Assembly: GCA_947651825.1 (NCBI GenBank)
Contig: CANTAQ010000001.1
Coordinates: forward strand, 414,249 to 478,248
Source of the DNA: an uncultured Clostridium sp.
GTDB lineage: Bacteria; Bacillota; Clostridia; TANB77; CAG-508
Direction: 5' to 3'
Length of the DNA stretch: 64,000 bases
This document shows, piece by piece, positions 60,234 through 63,152 of the stretch. Below the pieces are notes generated by a model, which worked only from the letters and a program-made list of their open reading frames with translations, did no database searches and was not told the origin of the DNA. Both the position numbers and the translations under genes were made by a program. Numbering within the stretch: position 1 is the first letter of the stretch; each line of letters begins with the position of its first letter.

Positions 60234-60965
60234 ATGTTAAATTTTGTTATATGTGATGATAGTTCTCCTGTTCTTATTAGGTTTTCTAAGATGCTAGAGG
60301 CTATTTTTATTAAACATAATATTGACGCTAAAGTAGGATTAGCAACTGACAATTTATCGAAACTTTTTAATTATATAGAAAATACTACTATTGATGTATT
60401 GATATTAGATATTAATTTAAAATCTGATATTTCTGGTTGTGATATTGCTGAAATGGTTAGAAAAAAGAATAAATCTGTTTATATTATTTTTTATACAGGT
60501 CATTTAGAATATGCATTAGTTGCTTATAAATATAAAACATTTGACTATCTTTGCAAACCACTAACCCAAGATCGATTAGAAGAAACTGTGTTAAGATTAC
60601 TTGAAGATGTTAATGTTTCTTCTTCTAATTTTGTTAAAATTAATAGTAAAACTGTTATAAATGAAAATGACATAAAATATATAAAAAAAGATGGAATGAA
60701 ATTAGTATTTTGTACATTTGAACGCAATTATTCAATATATAGTTCTTTCAGTAAGTTTTCTAATTGCTTGTCAGATAACTTTATTAGATGTCATAAATCT
60801 TTTATTATTAACATTAATAATGTAACTAAAGTCGATGCAAAAAATAATTTCGTTTTATTTAACAATAATGAGTTTTGTTCTATTGGAGCAAAATATAAAA
60901 ATTCTTTTTTGGAGGTTTTTAATAATGGAGATTCTTCAGACCGTTTTAGAAGTGTTAACAAGTGA
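60234..60965 (+). CDS. agrA: LytTR-family response regulator (AgrA-like)
   Basis: Receiver domain with the aspartate pocket, followed by a LytTR DNA-binding domain (FIRCHKSFIININNV). Confidence 0.75.
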   Translation: MLNFVICDDSSPVLIRFSKMLEAIFIKHNIDAKVGLATDNLSKLFNYIENTTIDVLILDINLKSDISGCDIAEMVRKKNKSVYIIFYTGHLEYALVAYKYKTFDYLCKPLTQDRLEETVLRLLEDVNVSSSNFVKINSKTVINENDIKYIKKDGMKLVFCTFERNYSIYSSFSKFSNCLSDNFIRCHKSFIININNVTKVDAKNNFVLFNNNEFCSIGAKYKNSFLEVFNNGDSSDRFRSVNK

Positions 60966-62280
60966 TAATATTACTTTATTTTCTATATGTTCTTATATAT
61001 TCTCTGCTATAGAAATTTATTTATTTGTTTTAATATTGTCTACTTTATCTAGTACTTTTATATCTTTGAAAAGAAAATTAATAGTTGTAATTTCTTTAGT
61101 AATTATTGGCTTTATAGCTCAAACTATTATACCTTCTCCATATTATTCTTTTGTTAATTTAATTTTTATGCTTTTATTGCCTATTATCATTTTGAAAATA
61201 CCTATATTAAAGTGTATAGCTTCAGCAATATGTTTATATCTTATTTCATTTTTCTTTGGAGTAATTTACTTAGTTCTTTATACTGCTATATTTAACTGTG
61301 AAGCAAATATATTTAAAGATATATTAATCTATAAAATAGTTTTCTCTCTTTCAATAGATTTAACGCTTTATTCATTTTACCTATTATTCAAGAAGTTCAA
61401 TATAACTCTTGATTTTATAGATGGCTTTAAACAGCATTCGCTTTTAATATTCAATTTACTTTTAGGTTTTGTTACTCTTGTACTTCAATTGATAATAGCA
61501 TATTTATATTTTGATTATATACCAATGACTTTAAATATTTTTAGCTCTCTTATTTTATTATTGTATGTTACTATAAGTATATTCAGTTTGTATAGAACTA
61601 GTAAGTTAGAACTTACTACAAAACTATTAGAAGCAGAAAAATTATATAGTAAAAATTTATCAACTTTACATGATAATATTAGAGGCTTTAAACATGATTT
61701 TAATAATATTGTTCAAGCCATTGGAGGTTATATTTCATCAAATAATATGCCAGCATTAAAAATATATTTTGATGATTTATTAGCTGACTGCCAAATTAAT
61801 AATAATCTTGCTGGTCTTGACCCTGAAGCAATTAACAATCCTGCTCTTTATAGTTTATTAACAGATAAATACTATAAGGCTAGTAAATTTGAGGTTAAGA
61901 TTGAACTTACAGTATTAACTGATTTATCTTGTCTAAAAATTAAAGATTATGAACTTACTAGAATTTTAGGAATTCTTTTAGATAATGCAATAGAAGCTAG
62001 TTCGAAATCTAATGATAAAAAAGTAAACATTATATTTACAAAAGATAAACATATAGATAGAAATATTCTTATTATTGAAAATACTTATGAAAATAAAAAT
62101 ATAAATTTGGATAAAATATTTGAAAAAGGATTTACTTCAAAAAATACTGATGATAAAAATAGTCACGGACTTGGTTTATGGGAAGTTAGACAATTCCTAA
62201 ATAAACGTGATAACTTAAACTTACATACAACTAAAAATAATACTTATTTTATACAACAATTTGAAATCTTTAATAAATAA
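60925..62280 (+). CDS. agrC: AgrC-like sensor histidine kinase (HATPase_c_5, 6-7 TM sensor)
   Basis: TM sensor domain, conserved His region, and G-box GLGLWEV. Start set at MEILQT after GGAGG. Confidence 0.7.
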   Translation: MEILQTVLEVLTSDNITLFSICSYIFSAIEIYLFVLILSTLSSTFISLKRKLIVVISLVIIGFIAQTIIPSPYYSFVNLIFMLLLPIIILKIPILKCIASAICLYLISFFFGVIYLVLYTAIFNCEANIFKDILIYKIVFSLSIDLTLYSFYLLFKKFNITLDFIDGFKQHSLLIFNLLLGFVTLVLQLIIAYLYFDYIPMTLNIFSSLILLLYVTISIFSLYRTSKLELTTKLLEAEKLYSKNLSTLHDNIRGFKHDFNNIVQAIGGYISSNNMPALKIYFDDLLADCQINNNLAGLDPEAINNPALYSLLTDKYYKASKFEVKIELTVLTDLSCLKIKDYELTRILGILLDNAIEASSKSNDKKVNIIFTKDKHIDRNILIIENTYENKNINLDKIFEKGFTSKNTDDKNSHGLGLWEVRQFLNKRDNLNLHTTKNNTYFIQQFEIFNK

Positions 62281-62282
62281 AA

Positions 62283-62318
62283 ATAAGACCTCTATAAAAT
62301 TAAGAGGTCATTTTATTC
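62283..62318. terminator. bidirectional intrinsic terminator between convergent agrCA and agrBD
   Basis: gacctct-ataaaatta-agaggtc followed by a T-run. Confidence 0.6.
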
Positions 62319-62359
62319 TAAAATTTAATACTTACAAAGCCCTTTTTATATATCTTTTA

Positions 62360-62479
62360 TTAGTCTTTTTTTATTAAACTTGCTGGCATTTTTGGTTGGT
62401 GCCAAATTAAAATGAAAAATGATGCTGTATTTGTGTTTTTTGCATATTTTTCAGCTATTTTTGATAACATTTTTAACAT
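62360..62479 (-). CDS. agrD: AgrD-like autoinducing-peptide precursor (39 aa) MLKMLSKIAEKYAKNTNTASFFILIWHQPKMPASLIKKD
   Basis: RBS AAAGGAGGAGGG. Amphipathic N-terminal region, hydrophobic core, and an HQP(K)xP cleavage-site motif as in clostridial AgrD. Located immediately downstream of agrB. Absent from the ORF track because it is shorter than 60 aa. Confidence 0.6.
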   Translation of the reverse strand: MLKMLSKIAEKYAKNTNTASFFILIWHQPKMPASLIKKD

Positions 62480-62534
62480 TATTTTCCCTCCTCCTTTGTT
62501 TTATTTTATATATGTAATTTCAATGATGTACTCT

Positions 62535-63152
62535 TTAATTTTCTTGTTGCTCATATATTTCATGTCCGTATTTATTATTTGTTATTTTATACATAAATCT
62601 TGTTATTGCTATTGTTTGTAATAATACTCCAAACAAAAACAAATTTGCTATTATAGTATCTTTTATTAATAACGAAATTGCTAATGTTATTGTCATAATT
62701 ACATATGAAAGATTTTGTTTTATTTTTCTTTCTTTTTTTCTAAGTATTGGTACTGCTTCTGTATCTGCAGGTGCATAAAGTTTTATCATTAGCAATGAAA
62801 ATATCCATATAACTAGAGTAATAATTATTTTTACATTTTGTGTTAATACTATAGTTTTACTTAGAAAAGCATTTCCTATATAAAATATAGAAGTTGCTAA
62901 TATACATCCAATATGTGTTTTTAAGTGAACTCCTCCAGATACTAATCTATATGGCATTGTAATTAGAAGGGCTAATACTGATAATATTGGAACCTGAAAT
63001 ATATATGCAATAAAAAATAATATTAGAAACTTAGGCGATTCTCCTATTATAAGTTGTAATCCATAATTTATTACTTCTGCCCTTTCATCATCTATTTCTG
63101 GCATTTCCTTTCTTATTTTTAATGTTATTTTGTTACAAATTGCTTCTACCAT
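62535..63152 (-). CDS. agrB: AgrB family accessory gene regulator protein (AIP-processing peptidase)
   Basis: PYRLVSGGVHLKTHIGCILAT region with the catalytic H/C, and 4-6 TM helices. Confidence 0.75.
   Translation of the reverse strand: MVEAICNKITLKIRKEMPEIDDERAEVINYGLQLIIGESPKFLILFFIAYIFQVPILSVLALLITMPYRLVSGGVHLKTHIGCILATSIFYIGNAFLSKTIVLTQNVKIIITLVIWIFSLLMIKLYAPADTEAVPILRKKERKIKQNLSYVIMTITLAISLLIKDTIIANLFLFGVLLQTIAITRFMYKITNNKYGHEIYEQQEN

Follow-up and report, generated by a model that had tools for sequence, protein, structure and literature searches.

Autoinducing peptides (AIPs) cyclised through serine (Ser) are described as rare yet known, Clostridia included (PMC8251862; PMC12312760), and one such peptide is known from H. 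thermocellum (PMC8251862). Here we analyse an agr-type quorum-sensing locus whose autoinducer precursor, AgrD, contains no cysteine (Cys). It lies in a stretch of 64,000 nucleotides (hereafter the window) from an uncultured Clostridium sp. (GenBank assembly GCA_947651825.1, contig CANTAQ010000001.1, positions 414,249 to 478,248 of the forward strand), and all positions given below without another source are those of the window. We conclude that the locus probably encodes a working agr-type system of peptide quorum sensing, with four genes and a Ser-lactone signal, in an uncultured species of gut Clostridia.

Among the described systems, Agr2 of C. difficile (AIP NSA[SSWVA]) resembles this locus in being clostridial, in having four agr genes and in carrying Ser at the ring-forming position of AgrD (PMC12312760), and its paralogous AgrD, AgrD1, has the same HQPK after the ring (PMC8534292). 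The Agr2 ring is listed as five residues, whereas seven are predicted here; the C. difficile genes are ordered agrB2D2C2A2, whereas in our locus agrBD and agrA-agrC converge, the regulator gene preceding that of the kinase; and, in comparison with Agr2, the leader and tail here form a tightly conserved family of their own. The AIP of S. pseudintermedius / intermedius, RIPT[STGFF], likewise has Ser for the ring Cys (PMC12312760), and the resulting lactone autoinducer, made by AgrB, has been demonstrated by experiment (PMC12312760; Ji et al. 2005, in the reference list of PMC12180512). This peptide has a 5-residue ring with a 4-residue tail and belongs to a staphylococcal agrBDCA operon with RNAIII. 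In contrast, the AgrD analysed here has no match to PF05931, and no Rfam family, RNAIII included, reached its gathering score anywhere in the 64-kb window; clostridial agr systems are reported without RNAIII (PMC12312760).

GBAP of the E. faecalis Fsr system, QN[SPNIFGQWM], is also a Ser lactone with a ring of more than five residues and a hydrophobic C-terminal residue, and Fsr likewise relies on a processing enzyme resembling AgrB and on a two-component system of the AgrC/AgrA kind (PMC12312760). However, its ring has nine residues, its gene order is fsrBDCA (PMC12312760) and it has no HQPKxP tail motif. Separate agrBD and agrCA operons are known in clostridia (PMC12312760), and one Cys system shares this arrangement and a ring of more than five residues with our locus, its ring of six having been confirmed by high-resolution mass spectrometry (PMC12312760; PMC8251862). 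It differs in that a Cys thiolactone rearranges to a lactam and no Ser is involved. Its ring is presumably followed by a similar motif, YEPKMP.

Organisation of the agr locus

The locus consists of two convergent operons, agrB-agrD on the minus strand and agrA-agrC on the plus strand, with one hairpin common to both. Its features are as follows.

60234..60965, plus strand: agrA-like response regulator (receiver and LytTR domains), 243 aa, from Pfam
60925..62280, plus strand: agrC-like sensor histidine kinase, 451 aa, from the ATG after GGAGG, with an HATPase_c_5 domain
62280..62317, no strand assigned: terminator-like, bidirectional hairpin between the agrD and kinase stop codons, from folding
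62360..62479, minus strand: agrD, 39-aa autoinducer precursor, stop codon at 62360-62362, from NCBIfam TIGR04223
62363..62401, minus strand: AgrD C-terminal recognition tail, residues 27-39 (HQPKMPASLIKKD), from conservation
62402..62422, minus strand: AgrD core, residues 20-26 (SFFILIW), with the Ser20 codon TCA at 62420-62422, from the Cys/Ser-only column
62423..62479, minus strand: AgrD leader, residues 1-19 (MLKMLSKIAEKYAKNTNTA), from conservation in 210 distinct homologues
62487..62495, minus strand: ribosome-binding site GGAGGAGGG, read from the sequence, 7 nt before the agrD ATG
62535..63152, minus strand: agrB, membrane peptidase/cyclase, 205 aa, from Pfam AgrB PF04647

AgrB matched PF04647 over the entire model (positions 1-185 of 185; E=3.7e-38, 131.2 bits, cut-off 23), and its stop codon is separated from the agrD start by 55 nt. 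Its residues His76 and Cys83, seven residues apart, were invariant in 74 aligned homologues. Their spacing matches that of the catalytic pair His77/Cys84 in S. aureus AgrB, the equivalence being drawn from spacing and motif and not from a direct alignment. A sequence search returned no PDB match to AgrB.

The regulator carries the Pfam domains Response_reg (E=9.4e-15, 55.2 bits) and LytTR (E=1.2e-16, 61.1 bits), and a 100% identical protein was found on 71 public contigs. The kinase open reading frame (ORF), taken mechanically, spans 60835-62280, with its likely start at the ATG at 60925; from there, the gene overlaps that of the regulator by 41 nt. An overlap of this kind is also seen between the kinase and regulator genes as called in L081, L083 and the same-species loci. 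The kinase is laid out as a hydrophobic multi-pass sensor (residues ~1-225, with hydrophobic stretches at 16-127 and 171-224 in a crude hydropathy analysis), followed by a His-box (HDFNN) and a GHKL-type ATPase domain (HATPase_c_5, E=5.8e-16, 58.7 bits, cut-off 22). The pair is AgrCA-like, not equivalog: the kinase scored 109.7 bits with the staphylococcal AgrC model NF046015 (equivalog cut-off 500) and the regulator 65 bits with the AgrA equivalog model NF046049 (cut-off 400). Across relatives, the median identity was 29% for the sensor half of the kinase and 52% for its catalytic half, and this fast-diverging sensor parallels the hypervariable agrB-agrD-agrC region on which the S. aureus specificity groups rest (PMC12312760).

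The shared hairpin has a 7-bp G+C-rich stem (62287-62293 / 62303-62309) and a 9-nt loop, with A-run and T-run flanks (-10.3 kcal/mol; z=-3.25, plus strand). A consensus terminator scanner did not detect it, because the loop exceeds the 8-nt limit of that program. In all 83 of the 83 related loci, a stable hairpin was found within 130 nt 3′ of the agrD stop, with a median energy of -15.5 kcal/mol.

Identity and conservation of AgrD

The 39-residue product of the small ORF, MLKMLSKIAEKYAKNTNTASFFILIWHQPKMPASLIKKD, has zero Cys, and its ASFFILIW segment is followed immediately by HQPKMP. With the NCBIfam model TIGR04223 (quorum_AgrD, "AgrD family cyclic lactone autoinducer peptide") it scored 29 bits (E=8.7e-07; cut-off 19), and 26 of 26 sampled homologues matched this model as well. 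At E<=1, no Pfam family matched the peptide, PF05931 included; AgrD is outside this staphylococcal-type family. No PDB match to the AgrD profile was found. When the peptide was used as query in a protein search, 1399 database homologues were retrieved; the best 120 of these 1399 entries were almost all 39 aa long, and one homologue bears the JGI label "cyclic lactone autoinducer peptide".

We then scanned for AgrB with one genome per species, which yielded 80 species-level loci. All 80 came from metagenome-assembled genomes (MAGs) of uncultured Clostridia from the guts of humans, rabbits, goats, chickens and other hosts, "Clostridium sp. CAG:440" being one example. Of these 80 loci, 79 have an AgrD homologue directly 3′ of agrB, the lone exception being cut by a contig end, and most related loci that extend far enough had regulator and kinase matches on the strand opposite to agrBD. 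Within the species, six distinct assemblies (the NCBI MAG GCA_948984025.1 among them) were at least 99.1% identical to the window at the nucleotide level. AgrD was identical throughout these six places, with no Ser/Cys polymorphism of the kind expected from agr specificity groups. These findings indicate that the small ORF is a genuine AgrD. The HQPKMP motif was not found in the literature searched, and this AgrD family of uncultured gut Clostridia therefore appears uncharacterised.

An earlier note on this DNA, made from the letters alone, had described a complete agr-type locus, and all of the locus features that it claimed were recovered at the coordinates that it gave, with AgrB, AgrD, regulator and kinase each identified by Pfam or NCBIfam profiles. 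Its account of a Cys-free AgrD with a strong ribosome-binding site and HQP(K)xP after ASFFILIW agrees with the TIGR04223 match and with GGAGGAGGG before the ATG, and the hairpin between the stop codons supports the common terminator that it had placed where kinase and LytTR regulator converge on agrBD. It had named two grounds for rejecting its reading, namely another, Cys-containing AgrD-like ORF nearby and a lack of conservation beside agrB. No second AgrD-like small ORF was found across the whole 64-kb window besides 62360-62479, and the conservation in 79 of 80 loci is given above. On the other hand, calling the gene "unannotated" was an overstatement, because it passes the TIGR04223 cut-off and gene calls for the 39-aa agrD exist in each of the six public assemblies of the species that were examined. 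The alignment to PF05931 that had been suggested gave no match, TIGR04223 being the model that matches instead.

Ser20 at the position of the ring-forming Cys

Column statistics were computed for 210 distinct 39-aa AgrD homologues. Position 20 held Cys in 143 of them, Ser in 66 and Phe in a single sequence, with Ser types accounting for 31% of the family. Positions 21-26 were hypervariable (2.1-3.3 bits of entropy each). The leader was near-invariant at K3, A9, E10, K11, Y12, A13, T16, N17 and T18 and variable at positions 2, 4, 6, 8 and 15, and the tail HQPKMPASLIKKD was near-invariant: H27, Q28, P29, P32 and D39 never varied, and K30 and M31 rarely did. Six residues separate Ser20 from HQPKMP. 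A column limited to two (thio)ester-forming residues, placed just before a hypervariable hydrophobic core, has the expected look of a cyclisation position. Judged from the alignment, Ser20 is the homologue of the ring-forming Cys, and its placement supports a putative Ser-lactone autoinducer.

The earlier note had called the locus an unusual variant, which holds in that Ser AIPs are described as rare, but not in view of the established systems and of the roughly one third of the AgrD family that is of the Ser type. Its further proposal, a Ser lactone or a linear peptide, is in line with the absence of Cys and with a position 20 that is Cys or Ser in all but one of the 210 homologues. The second of these options, in which Ser-type AgrD is only proteolysed to give a linear signal, or AgrB releases a hydrolysed product and no ring is formed, would fit a precursor without Cys, a nucleophilic oxygen that is weaker than a thiol and the existence of a variant with neither Cys nor Ser (P0109). 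Nevertheless, we regard it as very unlikely, because an irrelevant side chain would not be expected to be restricted to these two residues in 209 of 210 sequences, linear analogues of S. aureus AIPs are inactive (PMC12312760) and the characterised Ser-type systems produce lactones (PMC12312760).

P0109 carries Phe at position 20 and hence no nucleophile there. Two other odd variants, P0111 and P0036, were noted, one with Ser-Cys at positions 20-21 and one a Ser type with Cys within the core. At the codon level, Ser20 is encoded by TCA (as in the window) or TCT, and Cys by TGT or TGC. A sequencing error behind Ser20 was considered and rejected, since TCA is two changes away from TGT or TGC and the codon recurs in independent assemblies.

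The conserved leader raises the alternative that Thr16 or Thr18 acts as the nucleophile, or that AgrD is cut elsewhere on its C-terminal side, so that the ring is not SFFILIW. Residues T16, N17 and T18 are invariant or nearly so, a linkage through Thr18 would give a 9-residue ring, the size of GBAP (PMC12312760), and the core is one residue shorter in four species (L033, L040, L051 and L052), corresponding to a 6-residue ring, so that ring length is not fixed in the family. However, the Cys types, where Cys would be the nucleophile, conserve Thr16 and Thr18 just as well, and the pattern of Cys or Ser only is confined to position 20. We consider the chance of such a ring close to negligible.

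The core-final residue provides a further constraint. Trp closes the core in 61 of 66 Ser types, compared with 48 of 143 Cys types, which argues for continued constraint and not for decay. That the change from Cys to Ser is a loss-of-function lesion in a decaying agr locus could appeal to the indels that split the kinase gene in two of the six same-species assemblies. Yet Ser types make up 66 of the 210 distinct sequences and occur in seven loci, each from a different species-level genome or contig, and their cores keep diversifying after the Ser while retaining Trp at the ring-closing position in the 61 cases. Moreover, AgrB, regulator and kinase are intact ORFs in the window, the genes for these three proteins match full-length where they are present on Ser-type contigs, and the AgrB catalytic residues are conserved. 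Decay is therefore extremely unlikely.

In a neighbour-joining tree of AgrB, built without bootstrap, Ser types appeared at three or more places, interleaved with Cys types. A search for AgrB residues separating Ser types from neighbouring Cys types found none.

We also observed that a locus from a different species (L082) carries, at 4152-4271, an agrD identical to window 62360-62479 at 115 of 120 nt, with identical codons for SFFILIW. AgrB of the two loci is only about 50% identical, and the loci as a whole are 69% identical at the nucleotide level. The near-identity of agrD suggests that a signal allele was exchanged between species. As for a transfer of the kinase sensor together with this agrD, the L082 contig ends before the sensor, and a database search with the sensor domain gave only same-species fragments and one close relative.

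Predicted maturation and ring size

The best-supported reading of the locus is the canonical agr pathway operating with an oxygen nucleophile. AgrD (39 aa) would be made with its conserved leader, whose amphipathic character was judged by eye, and AgrB, through His76/Cys83, would cleave it at Trp26/His27, releasing the invariant HQPKMPASLIKKD tail and keeping the Trp26 carboxyl as an acyl-enzyme. The hydroxyl of Ser20 would then attack the acyl-enzyme to form a macrolactone, cyclo(Ser-Phe-Phe-Ile-Leu-Ile-Trp), with a 7-residue ring, which may bear a short N-terminal tail from ...NTNTA. After export and removal of the leader, the AgrC-like kinase would sense the peptide and phosphorylate the LytTR regulator. 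In this scheme, we infer the cleavage site, lactone chemistry, ring size, tail length, autoinduction and regulon.

The predicted cleavage site was derived from C. difficile, where AgrD1 reads ...ANSTCPWIIHQPK (PMC8534292) and the AIP derived from it is listed as ANST[CPWII] (PMC12312760), so that the ring ends right before HQPK; the corresponding cut here would be at Trp26/His27. From the distance between the Ser/Cys position and the processing motif, a 7-residue ring, cyclo(SFFILIW), is predicted. In the S. aureus AgrD-I sequence (...YSTCDFIM/DEVEVPKEL..., cut at the slash), a conserved Pro lies six residues past the cut, and Pro32 lies likewise with respect to Trp26/His27. A primer from 2025 describes AIP rings of 5, 6 and 9 residues, the 9 of GBAP being the largest (PMC12312760). 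A ring of seven would thus be a new AIP size, and it is the sole candidate for a structural novelty of the locus; the agr circuit is otherwise ordinary, textbook in logic, and passes current annotation models.

Several points weigh against this reading. Cleavage site, ring size and lactone all derive from homology, and a 7-residue ring is absent from the sizes given in the primer (PMC12312760), so the true boundary could differ. The PF05931 AgrD model gives no match, and the AgrC and AgrA equivalog scores are far under their cut-offs. The kinase gene is disrupted in two of six same-species assemblies, and the agr system may be dispensable or often lost. In addition, a repeat finder identified no convincing LytTR-type direct repeats upstream of agrBD or agrAC, and autoinduction is accordingly an assumption of the scheme.

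The final chemistry of the ring also has to be considered. If the signal carries no tail, the Ser20 ester might rearrange, through an acyl shift from O to N, to a homodetic cyclic heptapeptide in which every link is an amide. A parallel is offered by the S-to-N shift through which clostridial thiolactones without a tail become cyclic AIPs (cAIPs), the clostridial AIPs detected by Molloy et al. were all lactams without an N-terminal extension (PMC8251862), and a lactam as the final product would readily explain why Cys and Ser interchange freely at position 20. However, the invariant N17, T18 and A19 before position 20 could equally be a retained tail, and Molloy et al. left the fate of Ser-cyclised, tail-free AIPs undecided (PMC8251862). 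We therefore consider the rearranged peptide unlikely and retain the Ser lactone as the predicted signal.

Regulatory sites and the surrounding region

Two further features flank the agr genes.

60133..60161, plus strand: sigma-70-type promoter, near-consensus (TTGACA-17-TATAGT, 11/12 matches), 5′ of agrA-agrC
63236..63281, minus strand: hairpin and T-run 3′ of a methyltransferase gene, between that gene and agrBD, from an inverted repeat

The promoter at 60133-60161 was the best in the region; promoter-like sites overall were no commoner than in shuffled sequence. Upstream of agrBD, a TAAAAT-like -10 element, judged by eye, was the sole feature common with four relatives. Across 83 upstream regions, k-mer enrichment aimed at LytTR binding sites returned AT-rich words and nothing above the AT-rich background. 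The hairpin at 63236-63281, AAAATCATATATGAAA...TTTC(G/A)TATATGATTTTTT, recurs as the same element in L001, L002, L004 and L007 (at ~3880-3930). It is kept across species whose AgrB proteins are 60-77% identical, which is unusually conserved for a terminator.

Within the species, two loci (L087 and L088) differed from the window at two places. In the intergenic region 5′ of the regulator, upstream of the promoter at 60133-60161, a 66-nt stretch within window 59951-60018 was unaligned in both, 61 nt of different sequence standing in its place; the rest of the locus is at least 99% identical. A third locus, L089, starts at about the equivalent of 59951-60018 and is uninformative on this stretch. 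The kinase was split into two ORFs in L087 (3253-4499) and L088 (3253-4639) by a ~108-nt deletion or a ~31-nt insertion, corresponding to window ~61559-61666 and nearby. These split kinases could be assembly errors or natural variants defective in agr, as are often found in S. aureus.

The window has a G+C content of 27.7%, and the neighbouring genes are ordinary chromosomal ones. On the plus strand, 55912-57654 encodes a protein of 580 aa that is hydrophobic and pilin-like at its N-terminus and carries a Big_7 Ig domain, upstream of a deacetylase gene. This protein is also present in L084, and a DXP synthase gene takes its place in the same-species contig L085, so the neighbourhood differs within the species. 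Four large ORFs on the minus strand, at 45666-48722 (1018 aa), 48735-49523 (262 aa), 24603-26186 (527 aa) and 20188-21414 (408 aa), had no Pfam match (E<=0.001 or E<=0.0001). The 408-aa ORF overlaps the 3′ end of a gene for an extracytoplasmic function (ECF)-type sigma factor (21389-21943) and may encode its anti-sigma partner.

Implications for the AgrD family

With this locus, a well-supported Ser-type AgrD joins a short list, and it does so within a very large, conserved AgrD family of uncultured gut Clostridia. We tentatively suggest, while judging it somewhat less than even odds, that this large family, which as sampled is confined to uncultured gut and rumen Clostridia, makes 7-residue macrocycles, that Cys and Ser toggle repeatedly at the ring-forming position among close species without a corresponding change in AgrB, and that signal alleles may move between species. 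If a 7-residue ring is true, it would bridge the gap between the 5/6-residue and 9-residue AIP macrocycles, and a single AgrB scaffold would take both Ser and Cys nucleophiles. With variation confined to the six residues after the Cys or Ser, the family offers a collection of naturally occurring signals with which specificity and cross-talk in the gut could be studied, and synthetic peptides could probe these AgrD signal variants although their producers are uncultured.

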